64,000 nucleotides of DNA. Source: an uncultured Alphaproteobacteria bacterium (GTDB lineage: Bacteria > Pseudomonadota > Alphaproteobacteria > Rs-D84). Below are positions 13,814 to 44,218 of the stretch, one piece after another. Each line of letters begins with the position of its first letter. Position 1 is the stretch's first letter. The position numbers were made by a program, and so were the translations under genes. The notes under the pieces were generated by a model. The model was not told the origin of the DNA. It saw only the letters and a list, made by a program, of their open reading frames with translations, and ran no database searches. The stretch lies in assembly GCA_944393245.1 (NCBI GenBank), contig CALXZM010000003.1:14151-78150 (forward strand), read 5' to 3'.

Positions 13814-14362
13814 ATGATTATGAATATAGAAGAAATTATACCCGGCAAAGAACCGCCAAAAAATATGAATGCGATAATAGAGGTTCCAGAAAACGGATAT
13901 GTAAAGTATGAAATAGATAAATTAACCGGTCTGCCACGGGTGGACAGAATTTTACACACGCCGATGGCATATCCGGCAAACTATGGGTATTTCCCGGGAA
14001 CGTTGGGGGATGATGGTGACCCGTTGGATTGTGTGGTGGTGTGTAATGCACCGTTACGGCCCGGCGTATTGATAGAGGTTCGGCCCATTGGGGCATTGTT
14101 GATGGAGGATCAGTCCGGTGGCGATGAAAAAATAATTTGTGTTCCGCGTGATAACATAGATCCGTTTTATACCGCGACGGAATATATTGAACAATTGCCA
14201 GAAATTTTACGGTCCAAAATCGAATACTTTTTCCATCATTACAAAGATTTGCAACCAAATGCATGGTCCAAGGTCAAAGGGTGGGCTGACCGTGCAACGG
14301 CTGATAAATTGATTATGGACAGTATTGATCGTTATTGGGCAAATAAACGGGCGGCACAATAA
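13814..14362 (+). CDS. ppa: Inorganic pyrophosphatase
   Basis: Family I PPase motifs (IIEVPEN..KYE, DGDPLDCVVV, ED..GGDEKIICVP). Confidence 0.9.
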   Translation: MIMNIEEIIPGKEPPKNMNAIIEVPENGYVKYEIDKLTGLPRVDRILHTPMAYPANYGYFPGTLGDDGDPLDCVVVCNAPLRPGVLIEVRPIGALLMEDQSGGDEKIICVPRDNIDPFYTATEYIEQLPEILRSKIEYFFHHYKDLQPNAWSKVKGWADRATADKLIMDSIDRYWANKRAAQ

Positions 14363-20934: not shown

Positions 20935-21189
20935 TTACACCAATGTTTGTTGTTGCGGGGCAGGTTGGGCGTCAGCACTGACCAATGAATACAGGACAGA
21001 TGATATTAGTAATTGGTATGGAACGTGTTGTTGTTCTGCCAGTTTTTTTATGCGTTCCAATATTTGATGGGGAATTCGCATGTTTATGACACTGTCTGAT
21101 TTGTTAAATGCGCGATATGCTGCGTATTCTTTTAACAGTGCTTCGATATTCATTATGAATAATTGCTGCATTACGTTTGGCATACACAA
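20935..21189 (-). CDS. Ribbon-helix-helix DNA-binding protein, BrnA-antitoxin-like
   Basis: The C-terminal half INMRIPHQILERIKKLAEQQHVPYQLLISSVLYSLV matches the BrnA/CopG-type motif (..itiRld.dvlewfk..a...g.gYQtlIN.vLreyv). TTG/ATG start. No BrnT-like toxin ORF is found upstream. Confidence 0.5.
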   Translation of the reverse strand: MCMPNVMQQLFIMNIEALLKEYAAYRAFNKSDSVINMRIPHQILERIKKLAEQQHVPYQLLISSVLYSLVSADAQPAPQQQTLV

Positions 21190-26753: not shown

Positions 26754-27470
26754 ATGAAAAGATTGGTTTCTTTGGCTGTTTTGTGCGGTTTGACTGTACC
26801 TGCATTTGCCGCGCCCAGTTATTTGACGCGTGATGGTAATGGCGGATACGTCGTTACATATGATTACACGGACAAGGCGAAAACCGGATGGTATGTTGGT
26901 GGGCGTGCCGAATTGGGATTCTGGAACTGGGAAAACAAGTACAGTGTGGACAGTGATTTGGCTGCGGACGAGGCGTTTAATAGCGATAAGTATTCGTTTG
27001 AACCCGCATTTGGTGGCAGTATATTTGGTGGAAAACGCTTTGCGTATTTCTGGCGCGCTGAATTGGAGGCCGGATATCTGGGCTATTTCAAGGATAAAGA
27101 TGCGGCCGCAGAATTTACTATGCAGATTCCGTATGTAATGCTGAACGGATATTATGATTTTACAAACGGTTTGTATCTGGGGGCAGGTGTTGGACTTGCG
27201 ATGCCAATAACGACAATAGATATGGTTTGGGCCGATGGTTCTGATCGTACTGAATACGGTGTTGCACCGATGGCCGGTGTAATGTTGGGATATTCATATA
27301 AATTGGATTATAATCTGGTGTTGGATATTCGTTATCGTTTGGCTGGCATGACCGGAATTGATCAACGTATAAATAATTTGACGACTGGGACAACCAATCA
27401 TTGGTTCCAAAATGACATTGATTTTATCCTGGATAATTCAATATCAATTGGTATCAGATATGAATTTTAA
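26754..27470 (+). CDS. Outer-membrane beta-barrel protein (OmpA-like/Omp25-type small porin family)
   Basis: Signal peptide MKRLVSLAVLCGLTVPAFA, alternating amphipathic beta strands, and a C-terminal aromatic residue (...GIRYEF). Confidence 0.7.
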   Translation: MKRLVSLAVLCGLTVPAFAAPSYLTRDGNGGYVVTYDYTDKAKTGWYVGGRAELGFWNWENKYSVDSDLAADEAFNSDKYSFEPAFGGSIFGGKRFAYFWRAELEAGYLGYFKDKDAAAEFTMQIPYVMLNGYYDFTNGLYLGAGVGLAMPITTIDMVWADGSDRTEYGVAPMAGVMLGYSYKLDYNLVLDIRYRLAGMTGIDQRINNLTTGTTNHWFQNDIDFILDNSISIGIRYEF

Positions 27471-27512: not shown

Positions 27513-27532
27513 TGTATAGGTAGAGAGAATTG

Positions 27533-30280
27533 ATGAAAAACGATCTGAAAATTTCGACACTGACAATTATTTGCGTCTTGTGTACGGCGGTATCTGGTGC
27601 ATATGGTGCATCGTCGGTTCGTTCGTTTGGTGGCAGTGGAACGTATGCCAGTGCATCTGACGCGGCGGCGGCCAATACCAGTTCGACAACTTCTGTTCGT
27701 GGTGGGTCTGTGCGTGTAAATCCGGGATCTGGTGTTTCGGGTTCAAGCACGACTATCGATGCCGGTACAACAACAAATGGCCGTGTTGCGACAACACCGC
27801 GTTTGTCAATTGGGCATTATCTGGGTGGCGGAACGTCAATTAGTGGTGGCAGTTCACTGCGTCCGCAAACGCCGGGATCTTCGTCTGGTGGTTCTTCGTC
27901 CGGTGGTGATGGTGGGTTGGATCCAGATGTTGCGGCGGGACTGCGTCAACAGGTTGATCAATTACAGCGTGATGTCGAAGATTTGCGTAATGCTGATGAT
28001 AATATAAATGACCAGTTGTTGGATAAACAGGATGCTTTAATTCCTGGTGATGATGGTTATATCATTATAGATGATGCTACGAACGAAATCTTTGTTGATG
28101 TCGATGCGTTGCAGGGTGCGTTGGAAACCGTTGCGGGCAAAGATGGGCGTGAAGTTGAATTGGGTTCCAATGATACGCATTTGTTGTGGCGTTATGTCGG
28201 TGAAAGTGGTTGGCATGATTTGATTGCGATTGCTGATATTACCGGTCCCCAGGGCCCCCAGGGTGAAAAGGGTGAAAAGGGTGATCCGGGTGATGCGGCC
28301 AATCTGGATGCTTATTCAACAACTGAACAAATGAATCAGGCGATTGGTAATGCGATTGCCGCGCTGGCGGATGTTTATGCGACCAAGGCAGAATTGGCCA
28401 ATTATGCAACGTCTGATGATTTATCGCGTGGTTTGGCGGCCAAGGCAAATGCAGCAGATGTTTACACCAAGGCAGAGGTTTATAACAAGACCGAAGTTGA
28501 TGACAAGGTTGCTGATATTGTTGCCGGTGATATGGACGGGGCATTGGCCAATAAAGCCGATAAAACGTATGTAGATACACAACTGGCGACCAAGGCCGAT
28601 AAAACAGAATTGGCAAATTATGCCACCACGGAATCTGTTACTGCGCTGGATTCCGAAATGGACGAAGTGAACGCCACTGCGACCGAGGCGGCATTAGGTG
28701 CCGCACAGGCGTTGAGTGGCCTGACCGGCAAAGAAGATACATCAAATAAGACACAAACGCTGACAAACAGTGCAACACAGTATCCGTCTGGTGCGGCGGT
28801 AACGACGGCGTTGGAACAAAAGGCTGATAAGTCTGAATTAGAAAATTACGTCACGTCAGATGAATTGGCAGGCAAGGCGGATCAAAGCGCGTTGGATAAT
28901 TTGACTGGACGTGTTTCCGCGAACGAAGCGGGTATATCTGAATTAAATACCACGATGGGGTCGGGTGAATTGACCACGTCTGACAAAACGGTTTTGGGCG
29001 CAATCAATGAATTGAAATCCAAAACGGACGGTATGGCGACCGACGGTAATTTTGAAGAAATGAATAGCAAGATTACCGAAATGGAAGGCAAACTGGATGG
29101 CAAGCAGGATGTTGCCAATATGGCCCAGACCGTGACCGACGATGAAACAAAATATCCGTCGTCTGCGGCGGTTTATGGCGAATTGGAAACCAAGGCAAAT
29201 GCGTCCGATTTGGCGAACTATGCAACCACTGAAACCGTGAACCAGATAACAGAAAATGTCACCAATGTTACGCAAACGGTAACGCAGTTGGGTGATACAA
29301 TTAATAATGCTGAAACGGGACTGAAAAAACAGGTCGAAGATGCCGTTACAGCTGCGAATACCGCCAAAGAGGCGGCCGATGCGGCGACATCTGCGGTTGC
29401 GGGCAAGCAAGATGCATTGGGATTCACCCCGGAAAATGTTGCGAACAAGAGTTCAACTGTTGTTGATGATGAATCAAAATATCCATCATCTGCGGCGGTT
29501 TATGGCGAATTGGAAACCAAGGCAAATGTTTCCGATTTGGCGAACTATGCAACAACTGAAACCGTGAACCAGATTGAACAAAATGTGACCAACGTCACGC
29601 AAAAGGTTAATGAAATCACTAATCCGGATACTGGATTGGCATCCCAGGTTACAAATATCACAAATGTAATTGGCGATGCGGATTCCGGTCTGGTCAAGGA
29701 TGTTGCCGATGCGGCGGCGGCGGCTGATGCGGCACAACAAACCGCAACAGAGGCTAAAAACACCGCTGATGCGGCGCAAACAACTGCTGACGAGGCAAAG
29801 GCCGGTCTGGATGCCAAGGAAGACAAGTCCAACAAGGCCACGTCTATTACGGGGGAAAACCAATCGTCTGCGACGGTGTATCCGTCGGTTGGGGCGATTA
29901 CCCAATGGACGAATGATCGCATAAATGAATTATCGACCGAGGGCCTGCCCGTGAATCCGGATAATATTGGTGCGGGTGCGATTACCACAGAAAAAATAGC
30001 AGATAATGCCGTTACAGAAGATAAATTGAGTGACGAATTAAATACTGAAATTGATGGCAAGGCAAATACGGCCGATTTGGGGGCGTTGGCGACCAAGGAT
30101 CAGATTACAAATGCGGATGTTGCGGATGACGCGGCAATCGCGAAATCAAAGCTGGCATCGGATGTTCAGGCGGCTTTGGACAAGGCTGCTGATGCTGTAA
30201 GTATGGCGGGTGCGTCTGAAAACAGCGTACTGGGTACCGACGACGAAGGTAATCCGGTCTGGTATGAAATAGCAATGTAA
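27533..30280 (+). CDS. Large secreted repetitive fibre-like protein (paralog 1) with collagen-like triplet segment and tail-fibre-like repeat modules
   Basis: Signal peptide, Ser/Gly/Thr-rich low-complexity N-terminal region, THLLWRYVGESGWHDLIAIADITGPQGPQGEKGEKGDPGD (collagen-like G-X-Y preceded by a W..Y.G...W..L motif), and many ELANYATTE / KYPSSAAVYGELETKA / AITTEKIADNAVTEDKL repeats. The C-terminal module YPSVGAITQWTN...LPVNPDNIG is shared with paralog 2. Confidence 0.7.
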   Translation: MKNDLKISTLTIICVLCTAVSGAYGASSVRSFGGSGTYASASDAAAANTSSTTSVRGGSVRVNPGSGVSGSSTTIDAGTTTNGRVATTPRLSIGHYLGGGTSISGGSSLRPQTPGSSSGGSSSGGDGGLDPDVAAGLRQQVDQLQRDVEDLRNADDNINDQLLDKQDALIPGDDGYIIIDDATNEIFVDVDALQGALETVAGKDGREVELGSNDTHLLWRYVGESGWHDLIAIADITGPQGPQGEKGEKGDPGDAANLDAYSTTEQMNQAIGNAIAALADVYATKAELANYATSDDLSRGLAAKANAADVYTKAEVYNKTEVDDKVADIVAGDMDGALANKADKTYVDTQLATKADKTELANYATTESVTALDSEMDEVNATATEAALGAAQALSGLTGKEDTSNKTQTLTNSATQYPSGAAVTTALEQKADKSELENYVTSDELAGKADQSALDNLTGRVSANEAGISELNTTMGSGELTTSDKTVLGAINELKSKTDGMATDGNFEEMNSKITEMEGKLDGKQDVANMAQTVTDDETKYPSSAAVYGELETKANASDLANYATTETVNQITENVTNVTQTVTQLGDTINNAETGLKKQVEDAVTAANTAKEAADAATSAVAGKQDALGFTPENVANKSSTVVDDESKYPSSAAVYGELETKANVSDLANYATTETVNQIEQNVTNVTQKVNEITNPDTGLASQVTNITNVIGDADSGLVKDVADAAAAADAAQQTATEAKNTADAAQTTADEAKAGLDAKEDKSNKATSITGENQSSATVYPSVGAITQWTNDRINELSTEGLPVNPDNIGAGAITTEKIADNAVTEDKLSDELNTEIDGKANTADLGALATKDQITNADVADDAAIAKSKLASDVQAALDKAADAVSMAGASENSVLGTDDEGNPVWYEIAM

Positions 30281-30294
30281 GGGGAATTTGAAAA

Positions 30295-32133
30295 ATGAAA
30301 AAACAAAATATTGTATTTTCTGGATTTATGGCGGCGATACTGTTCAGTGCCGGTGCGGCCAACGCTGCGACCCAAATTGCCAGCAAGCAGTACGTTGATA
30401 ATCGTGAAACGTCAATCCTGCAAACGGTCAGCAATACATATGAAACCAAGGAAAATGTTACAAACCTGACTGAACAGGTAACCCAGTTGGATGATACAAT
30501 CAATAATGAAGATACTGGTCTGGCGGCCAAGGTTGACGATGCTGTCGCTGCCGCGGCCGCAGCGAAACAAACGGCTGATACCGCCAAATCAACTGCAACC
30601 GGCGCACAAAGCGCGGTAGAGGCATTGGGGGCAACCGTTGGTAATGCTGAATCTGGTTTGGTCAAAGATGTAAATGATTTGCAAACAACTGTTGGTCAGT
30701 TGGATACAGAAATGGATTCTAAATTGGATTCTGCAACCGCTGCATCAACATATGAAGTTATATCAAACAAGGCGGCTGAAATCAACGAAGGTAATCAAAC
30801 ATCGCCAACAGCATATCCGTCAGTGGGCGCAATCGTTCAATGGACTAATAAAAAGATTGCGGACTTGTCAGATACTGGATTGCCAGTTAACCCCGGTAAT
30901 ATCAATGATGGAACTATTGCTGGCAGTAAATTGGAAAATGGCGCGGTCACAACTGATAAAATCGCCGATGATGCGGTGACATCTGACAAAATCGCCGATG
31001 ATGCCGTTGGTTCGGGCCAGATTGCAGACGGTGCGGTTGGTACTGATGATATTGCCGATGGTGCCGTGACATCCGATAAATTGGATGGAACATTGGCGGG
31101 ACAAATTGCCGATATTTCTGGCAAGCAGGACATTGCAATGGGTGTCGGTCACGAAAATCATATCGTGACAACTGATGCGTCCGGTAATATTACATCCGCC
31201 GCGACAATCGGCCAGGACAAGGTTACTGGTTTGACCACGGCATTGGCGGGCAAGGCCAGCACAGACGATATTCCGACCGCGGTTTCGGAACTGACAAACG
31301 ACAGCGGTTATTTGACAAATGCCGATATGACCGGCTATGCCAAAACAACTGATTTGGATGCCAAACAGAACAAAAATGTTGGCAGTGAAAATAATGGTAA
31401 AATTTTGACCGTGGGCGCGGATGGTAATATCACAACATCCGCCACAATTGCCCAGTCAAAGGTCGAAGGATTGGAAACCGCATTGGCGGGTAAATTGGAA
31501 TCTGATGATTTGACGGGCTATGTAACCAGTGAATCGTTAACAACCACGTTGGACGATTATGCCACAACAACGGATTTGGGCGCGAAACAAGATAAATTAA
31601 CCGCAACTGGTGCCGCAAATCAACCCGTATATGTTAATGAACAGGGCGTTGTAACGGCCGGTAACACAATTCCGACGGTAACAACAAATATTACCACGGG
31701 CATCACAGATGCGGCCCAGGCGGGCGCAGTGGCCGATAAATTGGCACAAAAGGAAGATGCCGCGAACAAGGTCAAGACGATTAGTGATGGCAATAAATCG
31801 TCTGAAACACTGTTCCCGACAATCGGTGCGATTACCACATGGACTGACCAACAAATTCAAAAATTGTCTGATACTGGTATACCCGTTAATCCGGACAATA
31901 TTGGCAATAGTGCGATAACGACTGATAAAATTGCCAATGGTGCTGTTACAACAGAAAAATTGGCGGACGATTCCGTGACAGAAGACAAACTGAGCAATGA
32001 TGTCGTTGCATCTATTGATGCAAAGTTACCGGCGCCGGATGCGGACTGTGTTGCGGATTCAAATCTGTGCGTATTATCTGTGACACCAGGGGGTGATTTG
32101 GCGTGGGTTGCGGTAACACAACCGGCGGAATAA
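30295..32133 (+). CDS. Secreted repetitive fibre-like protein (paralog 2)
   Basis: Signal peptide ending ANAATQIASKQYVD. Repeats (K/R)IADDAVTSDKIADDAVGSGQIADGAVGTDDIADGAVTSDKL. Two copies of the YPS(V/T)IGAI.(Q/T)WT...LSDTG(L/I)PVNP.NI module. Trp-containing C-terminus (LAWVAVTQPAE). 14-bp gap from paralog 1. Confidence 0.7.
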   Translation: MKKQNIVFSGFMAAILFSAGAANAATQIASKQYVDNRETSILQTVSNTYETKENVTNLTEQVTQLDDTINNEDTGLAAKVDDAVAAAAAAKQTADTAKSTATGAQSAVEALGATVGNAESGLVKDVNDLQTTVGQLDTEMDSKLDSATAASTYEVISNKAAEINEGNQTSPTAYPSVGAIVQWTNKKIADLSDTGLPVNPGNINDGTIAGSKLENGAVTTDKIADDAVTSDKIADDAVGSGQIADGAVGTDDIADGAVTSDKLDGTLAGQIADISGKQDIAMGVGHENHIVTTDASGNITSAATIGQDKVTGLTTALAGKASTDDIPTAVSELTNDSGYLTNADMTGYAKTTDLDAKQNKNVGSENNGKILTVGADGNITTSATIAQSKVEGLETALAGKLESDDLTGYVTSESLTTTLDDYATTTDLGAKQDKLTATGAANQPVYVNEQGVVTAGNTIPTVTTNITTGITDAAQAGAVADKLAQKEDAANKVKTISDGNKSSETLFPTIGAITTWTDQQIQKLSDTGIPVNPDNIGNSAITTDKIANGAVTTEKLADDSVTEDKLSNDVVASIDAKLPAPDADCVADSNLCVLSVTPGGDLAWVAVTQPAE

Positions 32134-32190: not shown

Positions 32191-33816
32191 ATGAAAAAAT
32201 TAACAGCAGGTATTTTTGCAACATTATTGGCCGTTGTTTCGGTCGATGGGGCATACGCCGCAATCGCATCCAAGGGATACGTTGATGAAAAGGTTGGAAC
32301 AGTTACAACTGCACTTGGAAATAAAGCTGATAAAACAGAATTGGGTAATTATGCAACAACAGCAGCCTTGACTTCCGGTTTGGCGGGTAAGTTAGATACT
32401 GAGGGTACGGCTGCAAAAGCTACAGCAGATGCTTCTGGCAATGTAATCACAACAACATATGCAACAAAAACAGAATTAAACGCAGCTGAAAAGATTGCCA
32501 ATCGTGTGACAACGGTTTCTGATGCTTCTGATGATACACATTATCCAACGGCAAAAGCGGTTTGGGACGTTGTTCAGGCCGAAACATCTGACATTGCGTC
32601 CAGTGGTGATTTGAGTGCGTTGACAACGCGTGTCGGTACATTGGAAAAAGCGTCTGCGACACATGCGACAAAGACAGAATTAACAGATGGTCTGGCCGAA
32701 AAATTGGATACTGCAACCGCGGCAACAACGTATGCAACCAAAACGGAATTGGCTGGAAAGCAAGATAAAATTGCCGGTGCACAGTTAGAGGCATTGAATT
32801 CAGGAATTACCGCGGACAAGGTAGAGGCATATGATGGTTATGCCGCACAGATTTCTGGCAAGTTAGACGCTGCGGGTACGGCTGCAAAAGCTACAGCAGA
32901 TGCTTCTGGCAATGTAATCACAACAACATATGCAACAAAAACAGAATTAGGTGCAAAAGCGAATACCGCTGATTTGGGTGCATTGGCAACAAAAGATACA
33001 GTAAGCGCAACTGAAATTGATGCAGATGCAGTTACAACAGAAAAAATCCTGGATGCTAATGTAACAAAAGCGAAATTGGCATCTGATATACAGACATCTT
33101 TGGGTAAAGCGGATTCTGCTTTACAGCAAGCTGATTTGGCGGATTATGCAAAGACTGCAGAGGTAGCAAGTACATATGAAACCAAAGAAAACGCAGCTTC
33201 AACATATGAAACAAAAGCAAATGCTTCTGCAACATATGAAACAAAAGCAAATGCTTCTGCAACATATGAAACAAAAGCAAATGCTTCTGCAACGTATGCA
33301 ACAAAAGAAGAAATTAAAGGTATGGCAACTGATGCAAACCTGGCACTGAAACAGGATAAAACAGATAATTCATTGGAAACAACAAGCAAGACAGTTGTTG
33401 GGGCTATCAATGAAGTAAAGACAACCGCTGACGGTGCAAGCACTGCTGCAAAAGCAGCACAAACTGCGGCTGATTCAAAATTGCCGACCGCCACATATAA
33501 CACCCAGGTTGGTACTGTTTCAGCAGAAAATATGGGAACAACGGCAAAAACGGTTGTGACCGCTATCAAGGAAGTAGCAGGTGAAGCGGAGGCTGCACAA
33601 TCTGCAGCGTCTGCGGCAGATTCTAAAGCTCAGGCAGCACAAAGTGCAGCAGAAGCCGCTGATTCTAAAGCTCAAGCAGCACAAACAACTGCTAATGCAG
33701 CTATCCCAAAAGTAAATGCGGAAGGTAGTGACGGTAAGTACGTTTTGACTGCAACGGCTGCAAATGGCGTTGCTACATACAAATGGGAACTTATCGAACG
33801 TGGGTCTGCTGAATAA
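32191..33816 (+). CDS. Secreted repetitive fibre-like protein (paralog 3)
   Basis: Signal peptide plus AAIASKGYVDEKV. Internal exact 75-bp duplication (DASGNVITTTYATKTEL module), 30-bp tandem repeats (TYETKANASA x4-5), C-terminus ...ATYKWELIERGSAE. Confidence 0.7.
   Translation: MKKLTAGIFATLLAVVSVDGAYAAIASKGYVDEKVGTVTTALGNKADKTELGNYATTAALTSGLAGKLDTEGTAAKATADASGNVITTTYATKTELNAAEKIANRVTTVSDASDDTHYPTAKAVWDVVQAETSDIASSGDLSALTTRVGTLEKASATHATKTELTDGLAEKLDTATAATTYATKTELAGKQDKIAGAQLEALNSGITADKVEAYDGYAAQISGKLDAAGTAAKATADASGNVITTTYATKTELGAKANTADLGALATKDTVSATEIDADAVTTEKILDANVTKAKLASDIQTSLGKADSALQQADLADYAKTAEVASTYETKENAASTYETKANASATYETKANASATYETKANASATYATKEEIKGMATDANLALKQDKTDNSLETTSKTVVGAINEVKTTADGASTAAKAAQTAADSKLPTATYNTQVGTVSAENMGTTAKTVVTAIKEVAGEAEAAQSAASAADSKAQAAQSAAEAADSKAQAAQTTANAAIPKVNAEGSDGKYVLTATAANGVATYKWELIERGSAE
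33172..33321 (+). repeat. 30-bp tandem repeat (about 5 units, 3 perfect) inside paralog 3, encoding TYETKANASA
   Basis: ACATATGAAACAAAAGCAAATGCTTCTGCA repeated head-to-tail. Flanking units are diverged by 3-6 substitutions. Confidence 0.85.
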
Positions 33817-33927: not shown

Positions 33928-34836
33928 ATGATAAAGTCAAAAGGCATTTTCGCAGTTTCATTTATAGCTATGATGGTGGCGGGTGGCGCATATGCAAATA
34001 TTGCGTCACAGGGCTATGTCGATCAGCAGATTGATACCAGACAGGTTGCCGGTGATTATGCGACGAACACCGCATTGGGGACTGTTCGTACAACCGCAAC
34101 AAATGCCCAATCCGCAGCCGCTGCGGCAAAAACCGCGGCAGATGACGCACAAGATGCGGCAGATGCCGCCGCCAGTGCTGCTGCCACTGCACAGCAAACC
34201 GCCAATGCCAAGGTTTCAACCGCACAGGGTAGTTCTGCCGCTAATAAGGCCGTAATTACAAATGCGTCTGGTAATATCACAACGGGGACAATTTCGTCGG
34301 CGATGATTACAGATGGCACGATAACCAACGCTGATATTTCGGCCAGTGCGGCGATTGCCCAATCAAAAATTTCTGGTTTAACGACTGCGTTGGCGGGCAA
34401 GGCAAATACTGCTGATGTTCCGACAAAAACAAGTGATTTAACAAACGACAGCGGGTTTATTACTGCCGAAGAATTGCCCGATGGATATACTTTGCCGGTG
34501 GCGACAGCAGACACTTTGGGTGGTGTGAAATCTGGTGGTGATATTACTGTGGCGACCAGTGGTGCCGTTACCGTGAACAGTGCAACCAAGGCCGACAGTG
34601 CAACAGCCGCCGCAAGTGCCACCAAGGCGACACAGGACGCGTCCGGGAATGTGATTACAACCACATATGCAACCAAGGCACAGTTGACTGCATTAGATAG
34701 TTCAACATCTGGTTCTGGTGCGGTTGTGACAGATGTTTCACAAACAGATGGCAAGGTTACTGTTACCAAGGGCAATGTTCAAATCCCTGTGGGCAGTGCA
34801 ACCGCAACAACATATGCGACCATTTGGGTTGAATAA
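33928..34836 (+). CDS. Secreted repetitive fibre-like protein (paralog 4, shortest)
   Basis: Signal peptide plus ANIASQGYVDQQI. Shares the DASGNVITTTYATKAQL module and the GLTTALAGKA(N/S)T.D(V/I)PT module with paralogs 2 and 3. Trp-containing C-terminus TYATIWVE. Confidence 0.7.
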   Translation: MIKSKGIFAVSFIAMMVAGGAYANIASQGYVDQQIDTRQVAGDYATNTALGTVRTTATNAQSAAAAAKTAADDAQDAADAAASAAATAQQTANAKVSTAQGSSAANKAVITNASGNITTGTISSAMITDGTITNADISASAAIAQSKISGLTTALAGKANTADVPTKTSDLTNDSGFITAEELPDGYTLPVATADTLGGVKSGGDITVATSGAVTVNSATKADSATAAASATKATQDASGNVITTTYATKAQLTALDSSTSGSGAVVTDVSQTDGKVTVTKGNVQIPVGSATATTYATIWVE

Positions 34837-39513: not shown

Positions 39514-40512
39514 ATGGCGCATCAATTTTTCTTTAATCCGTTCATATTGGATAATCTGCCTGCGCCGTCCGCCGGGTTTGATGTTGTCCAGGATTTGTCT
39601 GAACCGCGTTTGCGCATGTATGTTACCAGTCGCGGGGTAAAAACTTTTTTCGTGCGCAAACGTGTTCATGGACGTGATAAAAGAATAATTATTGGTAATT
39701 ATCCAGATGTGGATATAGAACAGGCGCGTGGTGCCGTCCCAGGTGTGTTGGCAACCGCCATGGAAAAACCACATGTCCACAGAAAAAAAATAACACTGAA
39801 AAAATTCATGGATTTATATCTGGAAAAACGGGTGCGTCGCAACAGTTATTCGCGATATAAATTGGAACGTGCGATAAAACATCATTTGGGGCCGTTAATG
39901 GATAAAAATATTTCTGATATAACGACCGATGATGTCGCAAATGTAATTGATAATATTGGTGGACGTGCGATTGCTGCGCGTATGCAGGAATTTTTGCAAA
40001 GTGTTTTTAAGTATGCGATTGATTCTGGATATGCAAAACAAAATCCAGTTGCGGTATTACCAAAAATCCAACAAACACGTCGTGTGCGACCACTGAACCG
40101 TGCCGGTTTTCACAGATTGTTGGATGCGATTAATCGTGAACCTGATTTAAATTTGCGTGCGGCGTTTTTAATGTTGGTTTATGCGTTTGCACCAAAAAGC
40201 CAGGTTTTTTCCATGCAGTGGTCTGATTTGGATTTTAATCATGATACATGGGGCGACAGACCCTTGTCTGATATGGCAATTGTTTTGTTACAGGATTTGC
40301 CCCAGGATGGAATATGGGTTTTCCCGGGGCGGGGACGTGGGCATTTGACTGATCCGCGTGTGGCATGGCGACGCGTGGCGAAAAATGCAGGAATTCCAAA
40401 TTTGACCATGGATGATGTGCATAAATTCTTGGTACGACAATTGACTTGGACGTCTGATCGTGAAGATTTTAGGGCCAATATGAATGCGTTGTTGGCTGAT
40501 GTTATGGCGTAA
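39514..40512 (+). pseudogene. Degenerate tyrosine-recombinase (P4-type integrase-like) gene; catalytic residues apparently lost
   Basis: The N-terminal arm-binding-like region (RLRMYVTSRGVKTFFVRKRV) and the integrase SAM-like/core blocks (FMDLYLEKRV...; MQWSDLDF) are recognisable. The box I Arg is replaced (APKSQVF instead of LRRGEL), the box II HxxR is degenerate, and there is no C-terminal Tyr. No downstream continuation in other frames. Confidence 0.5.

Positions 40513-44141: not shown

Positions 44142-44218
<77 letters not shown>

Follow-up and report, generated by a model that had tools for sequence, protein, structure and literature searches.

Two kinds of building block recur in trimeric fibres with which the protein described here can be compared. 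In the Tal proteins of Streptococcus thermophilus phages, '3-beta domains', which have been compared with the junction module of Tuc2009 BppA, alternate with collagen-like triple-helix linkers that differ in length along a trimeric adhesion fibre (PMC9437275, from AlphaFold2 models). Beta-layer motifs, on the other hand, punctuate the trimeric coiled coils of autotransporters and of the Streptococcus pyogenes prophage tail fibre 2C3F, where an 'ATKAYVD' beta-layer caps the coiled coil; five of five beta-layer insert constructs crystallised as trimers (PMC4786415). Fibres of phage type are also encoded on bacterial chromosomes: the MAT fibres of Bdellovibrio bacteriovorus are a phage-fibre-like, trimeric multi-gene family, the members of which have a signal peptide followed by a β-rich N-terminal domain of ~130 residues and end in elaborate C-terminal tips or S74 domains, and the paper that describes them makes no mention of collagen (PMC10769870). 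Here, we analyse a 64,000-nucleotide stretch of DNA (positions 14,151 to 78,150 of contig CALXZM010000003.1; hereafter, the window) from an uncultured alphaproteobacterium of the Rs-D84 lineage, and within it paralog 1 (p1; 27533–30280, plus strand), a 915-residue fibre protein encoded by the first of four tandem fibre genes, p1–p4. Its relatives are found in genomes related to Candidatus Enterousia, a member of the uncultured alphaproteobacterial order Rs-D84 that lives in the guts of farm animals. Its genomes do not exceed about 1 Mb and encode neither a tricarboxylic acid cycle nor a respiratory chain, and the standard transporters for sugars and amino acids are missing (PMC12306168). The organism is thought to be dependent on other cells. 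The reading that we favour, with moderate confidence, is that p1 is a Sec-exported, homotrimeric Enterousia fibre in which residues 202–255 form a two-part junction between a coiled coil and a stalk.

The second part of this junction is a run of six Gly-X-Y triplets, GPQGPQGEKGEKGDPGDA (GPQ GPQ GEK GEK GDP GDA), which spans residues 238–255 (28244–28297, plus strand) in the frame of the 915-residue open reading frame (ORF). The initial annotation had reported a short collagen repeat with a Trp/Tyr motif upstream of it, and the in-frame translation of 28181–28300, LLWRYVGESGWHDLIAIADITGPQGPQGEKGEKGDPGDAA, confirms both; the peptide that it quoted begins at 28175, two codons before the start at 28181 that it gave. 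Across all six frames of the window, this is the only run of at least six triplets, and the W..G..W..L motif likewise occurs just once. The DNA of the run consists of three successive tandem pairs of 9-nucleotide repeats, GGTCCCCAG/GGCCCCCAG, GGTGAAAAG/GGTGAAAAG and GGTGATCCG/GGTGATGCG. In a gene as repetitive as this one, with 19 direct-repeat families and a Gly content of 8.5%, such a run might be taken for a chance low-complexity stretch devoid of structural meaning, but six triplets were never reached in 200 dinucleotide-preserving shuffles of the window, and just twice when the residues of the protein were shuffled 20,000 times. Moreover, the position of the run is conserved in all but one of 16 genome orthologs and in 86 of the 119 relatives listed, and the run adjoins a unit flanked by Gly-X-Y throughout its family, making a chance origin extremely improbable. 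The Gly-X-Y run at 28244–28297 is thus real and beyond chance.

The triplets are uninterrupted, as in collagen, and the collagen-profile search that had been suggested as a check gave a divided answer. The Pfam Collagen model (PF01391) finds no match at E ≤ 1 on full-length p1, and it gives the isolated 70-residue segment 18.1 bits (E = 0.0023), below the gathering threshold of 27.2 bits; orthologs with longer runs, of 9–13 triplets, do carry a precomputed PF01391 annotation.

Directly upstream of the run lies a three-stranded β-unit of 36 residues, GKDGREVELGSNDTHLLWRYVGESGWHDLIAIADIT (residues 202–237; 28136–28243, plus strand), delineated by PHROG 19976, by alignments and by AlphaFold2. It opens with triplets of its own, GKD and GRE, and contains two of the four Trp residues of p1. 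The term 'motif' understates what is a defined unit with a Trp/Tyr core. The profile phrog_19976 ('tail assembly protein') matches residues 205–252 of p1 (numbered from the TTG at 27530) with E = 3e-7 and a 64-residue segment with E = 1.2e-8; the unit also matches the PHROG tail families 819, 13286 and 15437. The conserved positions of the family, G-x-D-G-x-E-x-E-L ... W-R ... G ... W-x-x-L ... L-x-G, are all present in GKDGREVELGSNDTHLLWRYVGESGWHDLIAIADITG (alignments A1/A2), and the consensus of the aligned copies reads GxDGRExELxxxxTxIQWRxVGDxxWxxLIxLxDLxG.

A profile of the unit, built from five copies including that of the window and run against 1.84 billion representative proteins, recovered 3,961 clusters at E ≤ 1e-3, of which 2,402 also pass E ≤ 1e-10. 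As many as 16 copies occur in one protein, and the counts refer to cluster representatives at 50% identity, without taxonomy or names. This exhaustive search, together with a longer N-terminal query, replaced a 112-residue query that missed full-length orthologs; a word-indexed protein search missed long proteins, and there the unit profile gave 3 matches from 128 candidates. Among annotated phages, tblastn located the unit stretch in tail or tail-fibre proteins, often in several copies: those of Erwinia phage Fifi011 (gp33), Xanthomonas phage RiverRider (gp60, 'L-shaped tail fiber protein'), Xylella phages Sano (gp47, PHROG 19976) and Salvo, Pseudomonas phages Skulduggery (gp19) and Epa19 (a fibre protein), and Clostridium phage phiCp-D (gp25). 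No Pfam model covers the unit in the ten multi-copy proteins scanned, six of which match Collagen (four above threshold), and single proteins match Phage_tail_C, LRR_5 or trypsin/PDZ domains. Similarly, NCBIfam holds no model for the unit, the multi-copy relatives giving weak Scl matches through their Gly-X-Y parts. A sequence search of the PDB with the unit profile returned nothing meaningful (best E = 0.26) and no experimental structure, and literature searches on IQWRY-type core strings of the unit, and on PDB entries 7OAA, 7OAC and 7OAD, found nothing relevant.

The unit is predicted to fold as a three-stranded antiparallel β-sheet followed by a short helix. An AlphaFold2 monomer model of the 64-residue segment, based on an alignment of 75 sequences, has a mean predicted local distance difference test (pLDDT) score of 87.7, with values of 92–97 over residues 11–40 of the segment, which cover all three strands and are followed by the helix. 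In p1 numbering, the predicted strands comprise residues 208–212, 216–221 and 228–232, and the helix residues 233–237. An independent model of p1 residues 1–356, built with 54 orthologs, is poor overall (mean pLDDT 51.6), but it contains the same strand elements at pLDDT 82–83. Models of the phage tail-fibre proteins from BFVD superpose locally on this fold, at 0.8–3.1 Å over 32–36 residues. The conserved Trp, Trp, Leu and Ile would remain exposed in a lone 36-residue sheet, from which we infer that they pack on the corresponding units of partner chains.

The relationship between the unit and the Gly-X-Y repeat is closer than that of a motif and the collagen it happens to precede. We took the 150 best proteins of the family, which contain 856 copies of the unit separated by 686 short spacers: 595 of these spacers are pure Gly-X-Y, and the lengths of 621 are multiples of three, being mostly 0, 3, 6, 9, 12, 15, 18 or 21 residues. 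The unit itself, with Gly at both ends, is equivalent to 12 triplets, and 590 of the 742 complete copies match the 36-residue consensus, counted from Gly to Gly, exactly in length. Pfam Collagen co-occurs in unit-bearing proteins, and in p1, too, the unit has Gly-X-Y at its bounds, with GKD-GRE at its start and the six triplets after it. It had been suggested that the motif characteristically precedes collagen repeats in phage-encoded fibres. The association stands, given PHROG 19976, the tblastn matches and the spacer counts, but the unit does not only precede such runs; it is found on either side of them. It resembles a structured break in an otherwise continuous collagen frame, more than a motif preceding collagen, and, judged from sequence, unit and run would together constitute one composite building block that p1 shares with phage tail fibres. 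Collagen-like fibre modules of phage type are already known; this new member occurs in a cellular, signal-peptide-bearing protein of an uncultured gut bacterium with a reduced genome.

Orthologs of p1 (39–92% identity) occur in 16 species genomes related to Candidatus Enterousia, and relatives turned up at 18 loci when species-representative genomes were scanned; among these, the one from Candidatus Enterousia intestinigallinarum is the most similar (92% identity). In the 86 relatives mentioned above, identified with the N-terminus of p1, the position of the unit is unchanged and the Gly-X-Y run after it is unbroken. In all of the 16 genome orthologs but one, unit and run are followed by the same downstream sequence, A[AD]L.xY[SP]T..., which is kept among the relatives; the exception, at locus L011, has three triplets only and then a different downstream sequence. 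The number of triplets varies between relatives (2, 4, 5, 6, 7, 8, 9, 11, 12 or 13), but Gly always occupies every third residue and, because the downstream sequence is the same, the insertions and deletions must be of whole triplets. Whole-triplet changes with Gly retained point to selection on the collagen frame, and this range of 2–13 triplets across species suggests that the collagen part acts as a length-variable spacer. Paralogs 2–4 in every locus have neither the unit nor a run following such a unit; accordingly, the observation that only the first paralog carries the motif holds both in the window and in the 16 related genomes.

Taking these features together, we envisage that p1 leaves the cytoplasm via the Sec pathway and would assemble as a parallel homotrimer. 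The β-units of the three chains would pack around the threefold axis through their conserved Trp, Trp, Leu and Ile residues, and this packing would lock the chains in register, the unit serving as a registration node. The six triplets that follow would then form a collagen-like triple helix with a length of about 5 nm. Work with host–guest peptides indicates that collagen is stabilised by Pro at position X and by Lys-Gly-Glu/Asp pairs; in p1, the Pro residues of GPQ and the ion pairs within GEKGEKGD could thus stabilise the helix without hydroxyproline. Over evolutionary time, the number of triplets would drift in whole triplets, most likely through slippage or recombination of the 9-nucleotide repeats. 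Finally, the stalk would project from the cell, and the four-gene cluster would most likely give rise to fibres on the cell surface that touch other cells or surfaces of the gut. The trimeric stalk proposed in the initial annotation fits all of the evidence, and beta-layer motifs, being features of trimeric systems, lend indirect support to trimeric fibres, as do the IASKxYVD-type ends of p2–p4 (see below).

Several observations weigh against this scheme. Six triplets are short for an autonomous triple helix, and the score with the Pfam Collagen model is below threshold. One group of relatives (P0071/P0073/P0074) keeps the unit but goes straight into the stalk without a Gly-X-Y run; another (P0108–P0132) has a degenerate unit, in which two Cys residues replace Trp (CDFIVEGGNIVRDCNGDKTTIIAVDDIVGDGY), and no collagen run; and some ortholog groups have only 2–3 triplets or none. 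In such lineages, the collagen part must be dispensable, and overall it behaves as a dispensable spacer of variable length. Furthermore, we found no route by which the fibres would be exported to, or anchored at, the cell surface (neither an autotransporter barrel nor a lipobox nor a sortase-type signal), so they could instead be periplasmic or released.

The shortness of the run, its sub-threshold score and the existence of orthologs with 0–3 triplets would equally suit a flexible Gly/Pro-rich hinge that links two folded trimeric parts and forms no triple helix, beside a β-unit that is an ordinary small domain with no role in registration; in the 356-residue monomer model, too, the run is a coil with a pLDDT of about 48–50. 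A hinge, however, needs no Gly at every third residue, whereas all 86 of the 86 matched relatives keep an unbroken frame over 2–13 triplets. Moreover, the composition of the run is that of hydroxyproline-free bacterial collagens, with Pro in X and Lys-Gly-Glu/Asp pairs, and family-wide the unit is embedded in Gly-X-Y runs that pass the Pfam Collagen threshold (137 bits for the multi-copy relative P0135). We thus regard a mere hinge as unlikely, though deserving of more weight than the other alternatives, and retain the view that the unit and a short triple helix form a trimeric junction. Separately, the variants P0108–P0132 and P0071/P0073/P0074 could provide natural controls for the role of the collagen spacer.

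The remainder of p1 can be divided as follows. The ATG at 27533 given by our ORF list coincides with the start of the public gene call, and the exact product is found in a 380-kb metagenome scaffold (ENA ERZ28614751, scaffold_3), whereas the product of the TTG start at 27530 has no exact record. The first 25 codons (27533–27607, plus strand) encode a predicted Sec signal peptide, MKNDLKISTLTIICVLCTAVSGAYG, in which a charged N-terminus precedes a hydrophobic core and a site of small-x-small type, with likely cleavage at AYG|A (the signal peptides of p1–p4 were judged by eye); across 55 orthologs, A23 and A26 are nearly invariant or invariant. There follows a conserved Gly/Ser/Thr-rich region, residues 26–129 (27608–27919, plus strand), defined by the ortholog alignment and containing most of the invariant columns, namely, V29, R30, G33, T37, Y38, R56, S59, R90, L91, S92, G94 and L97. 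Although disorder is predicted for this region (pLDDT < 50), no other part of p1 is as well conserved in the 55 orthologs; its motifs are ASSVRSLGGSGTY, VRGGSVRV and GRVATxPRLSIGxYLGGGTSVSGGSSxRPQ. The region is a candidate anchor of the fibre at the cell surface, where its partner could be the outer-membrane barrel protein encoded next to p1 at 26754–27470. Between this region and the unit, AlphaFold2 predicts, at pLDDT 51–75, an N-terminal helix (residues 131–168), which is likely to be a coiled coil, a β-hairpin (177–188) and a further helix (190–198; together 27923–28126, plus strand).

Downstream of the junction, an Ala/Thr/Asp-rich stalk (28298–30277, plus strand) contains beta-layer motifs (YATKAEL, KANAADVYTKAEVYNKTEVD and KADKTE...), recognised from PDB matches and motif counts, and ends in a short C-terminal tail, ...SVLGTDDEGNPVWYEIAM. 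Through motifs of the type KANxADVYTKxEVY, the stalk matches NadA (4cjd; E = 0.0026, with an independent E-value of 0.0027 for its best segment). Weaker matches, to the GCN4-fusion chains 7oaa and 7oac (E = 0.086 and 0.43) and to the trimeric autotransporter adhesin (TAA) fragment 2wpr (E = 0.71), are not significant. Pfam and NCBIfam give sub-threshold matches of coiled-coil type only on full-length p1–p4, and Pfam, consulted with a foldon or Fibritin_C in mind, gives none on the last 60 residues of each. The C-terminal tails of all four paralogs are built around a conserved Trp (30220–30277, 32068–32130, 33736–33813 and 34807–34833): in p1–p3, they have a V/Y-L ... G ... W..(I/V/L) pattern (SVLGTDDEGNPVWYEIAM, CVLSVTPGGDLAWVAVTQPAE and KYVLTATAANGVATYKWELIERGSAE, respectively), while p4 ends with TTYATIWVE. 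These tails are reminiscent of a foldon-type trimerisation hairpin, with no large receptor-binding tip domain.

The other three fibre genes follow on the plus strand: p2 (612 residues; 30295–32133), p3 (541 residues; 32191–33816) and p4 (302 residues; 33928–34836) each have a signal peptide and lack both the β-unit and a Gly-X-Y run. Paralog 2 matches the PHROG tail-fibre families 892 (E = 2.3e-14) and 28766 (E = 1.1e-12), and paralog 4 matches PHROG 2012, a minor tail protein (E = 3.1e-5). Segments shared by p1 and p2 are confined to the C-terminal half of each, and p2 has no counterpart of the first ~260 residues of p1, which fits the modular domain acquisition put forward in the initial annotation. 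The mature proteins begin with IASKQYVD (p2; 30370–30393), IASKGYVD (p3; 32263–32286) and IASQGYVD (p4; 34000–34023), and these termini resemble the 'ATKAYVD' beta-layer of 2C3F (PMC4786415). Repeats of 30 nucleotides occur in two of the genes. In p3, which has nine motifs of (Y/L)(A/E)TK type, about five to six tandem units at 33142–33321 (70–100% identical, the first 63%) encode the 10-residue sequence TYETKANASA, of (Y)ETK beta-layer type, and are likely to vary in length; in p2, tandem units at 30907–31097 and 31876–32006 encode the 10-residue repeats (A/G)xI(T/A)(T/S)DKIADDAV, the repeat part being that which matches PHROG 28766.

Directly upstream of the cluster is a gene for a 238-residue outer-membrane β-barrel protein (26754–27470, plus strand; Pfam OMP_b-brl, E = 2.2e-6, 28.4 bits against a cut-off of 28.7), which adjoins p1 in 16 of the 16 related genomes and in locus L022; it may be the anchoring partner of the fibres. 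The gene order FtsX-FtsE-Pal/outer-membrane barrel-p1-p2-p3-p4/(PAP2)-DedA-LepA is kept in the 16 genomes, in which the flanking genes mostly show 75–96% identity as against 32–92% for the fibre genes. This is the context in which to consider whether the cluster is what remains of a prophage, tailocin or contractile injection system, or still functions as part of one, with p1 a true tail fibre. That p1, p2 and p4 match PHROG tail families, and that the unit is typical of phage tail proteins, would accord with this, as would an integrase-like ORF (39514–40512) and a tRNA gene (44142–44215) 5–9 kb downstream. All four genes, however, have signal-peptide-like starts, which phage tail fibres do not need; the neighbours are housekeeping genes (TolB, FtsEX, Pal, the outer-membrane protein, PAP2, DedA/VTT and LepA), with no phage structural gene between them; and it would be unusual for a mobile element to keep one gene order across 16 genomes from different species. 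A phage-type particle is improbable on these grounds, and we judge a prophage origin unlikely for what is a chromosomal, fast-evolving fibre locus.

The integrase-like ORF, which matches Phage_int_M, Arm-DNA-bind_3 and SAM-like domains, is separated from the fibre cluster by the PAP2, DedA/VTT and LepA genes and, with the tRNA gene, could represent a small integrated element that has nothing to do with the fibres. Elsewhere in the window, just upstream of tolB, a gene for an 82-residue CopG-type antitoxin (about 20935–21183, minus strand; 476–724 of locus L002) adjoins a 311-residue ORF without a Pfam match, and, in this genome of less than 1 Mb, the two may be a toxin–antitoxin pair.

An ORF of 915 residues for which no Pfam domain was recorded now has an interpretable layout: a signal peptide, a conserved N-terminal region, a coiled coil, the β-unit, a collagen spacer and an alpha/beta coiled-coil stalk. 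Furthermore, the variable four-gene locus is likely to be a surface-contact system of an organism that has never been cultured. The unit is abundant and tied to Gly-X-Y, yet it is uncurated in Pfam and NCBIfam and has no structure in the PDB; a curated model would improve the annotation of phage tail fibres and of bacterial collagen-like proteins. Should the unit indeed set the chain register, it could also be fused to recombinant bacterial collagens as a small, natural tag for trimerisation. More tentatively still, and as a combination that we hold to be possible rather than probable, the unit could be a widespread partner of prokaryotic and phage collagen helices, and Enterousia could have turned such phage-fibre blocks into a four-fibre surface organ. 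In that event, the unit may act as an in-register trimer node that lets short or interrupted hydroxyproline-free collagen segments fold, and the organ, Sec-exported and fast-evolving, may be anchored via the N-terminus of p1 and the outer-membrane barrel and attach to partner cells.

How, then, does p1 compare with the systems already described? The closest are the phage tail-fibre proteins that carry the unit, with G.DG.E.EL......IQWR..G...W..L...L..L.G in common and 33–49% identity over the tblastn matches. Like p1, these are fibre-like proteins with Gly-X-Y triplets directly after the unit, and often before it too, and the same fold is predicted for them in BFVD. Indeed, p1 resembles the PHROG 19976-type family in all four features compared: the profile match, the conserved residues, the Gly-X-Y bounds and the predicted fold. 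Unlike p1, the phage proteins have no signal peptide, often have 2–4 or more copies of the unit, and end in recognisable tip domains, such as the C1q domain of RiverRider and the deacetylase-like part of phiCp-D, which p1 lacks. For its part, p1 has a single copy, a signal peptide, a unique Gly/Ser-rich N-terminus, a long alpha/beta coiled-coil stalk and a housekeeping gene context.

The '3-beta domains' of Tal are likewise small, three-stranded and joined to collagen-like linkers, but they are of about 60 residues and have no sequence relation to the unit. We considered whether they belong to the same family and rejected this: DT1 Orf18, with 'DGKTPYVHFAYA...' after its collagen run, has no unit match, its sole match being to the Gly-X-Y tail columns of profile A5, and no PDB chain, BppA included, matches the unit profile. 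On sequence grounds, the Tal domain is best described as an architectural analogue and not a member of the family.

Scl1 and Scl2 of Streptococcus pyogenes and BclA of the Bacillus cereus group share with p1 a hydroxyproline-free Gly-X-Y region beside a non-collagen trimerising domain (putatively the β-unit in p1) in what is, or in the case of p1 may be, a surface fibre. The run of p1, however, is limited to six triplets, and p1 lacks both an LPXTG anchor and a C-terminal domain of C1q type. The C1q model PF00386 matches neither full-length p1 nor its last 60 residues, and the exosporium-targeting motif LVGPTLPPIPP is absent from the p1 sequence. The initial annotation had extended the Trp/Tyr motif to BclA-like proteins of Bacillus, a link that does not hold: the BclA-type exosporium protein BTB_c12600 (PMC10987987) is without Trp and gives no match to the unit profile, and p1 is without C1q.

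The stalk, as opposed to the collagen junction, invites comparison with NadA (4cjd) and HylP1 (2C3F), with which p1–p4 share the motif classes (Y/L)ATKxE(L), KA(D/N)xxDVYTKxE and ASKxYVD. Thus, p1 has the coiled-coil stalk with beta-layer motifs that is typical of trimeric autotransporters; unlike them, however, it has no Pfam match to a YadA-type C-terminal anchor, either over its full length or in its last 60 residues. HylP1 is a hyaluronidase, whereas Pfam detects no hyaluronidase or other catalytic domain in p1.

The MAT fibres of Bdellovibrio differ from p1 at both ends. Compared by description, the conserved region after the signal peptide of p1 is shorter, at 104 residues, and predicted to be disordered, whereas that of the MAT proteins is a β-rich domain of ~130 residues; and Pfam finds no Peptidase_S74 or other tip domain on p1, nor is there a PDB match to the solved MAT tips. 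No sequence link emerged from this comparison. In overall organisation, they nonetheless have features in common: both are chromosomally encoded multi-gene families of phage-fibre-like proteins in which a signal peptide is followed by a conserved region, in a bacterium dependent on other cells or, in the case of Enterousia, thought to be so. By analogy, the MAT fibres may be regarded as a functional parallel to p1.

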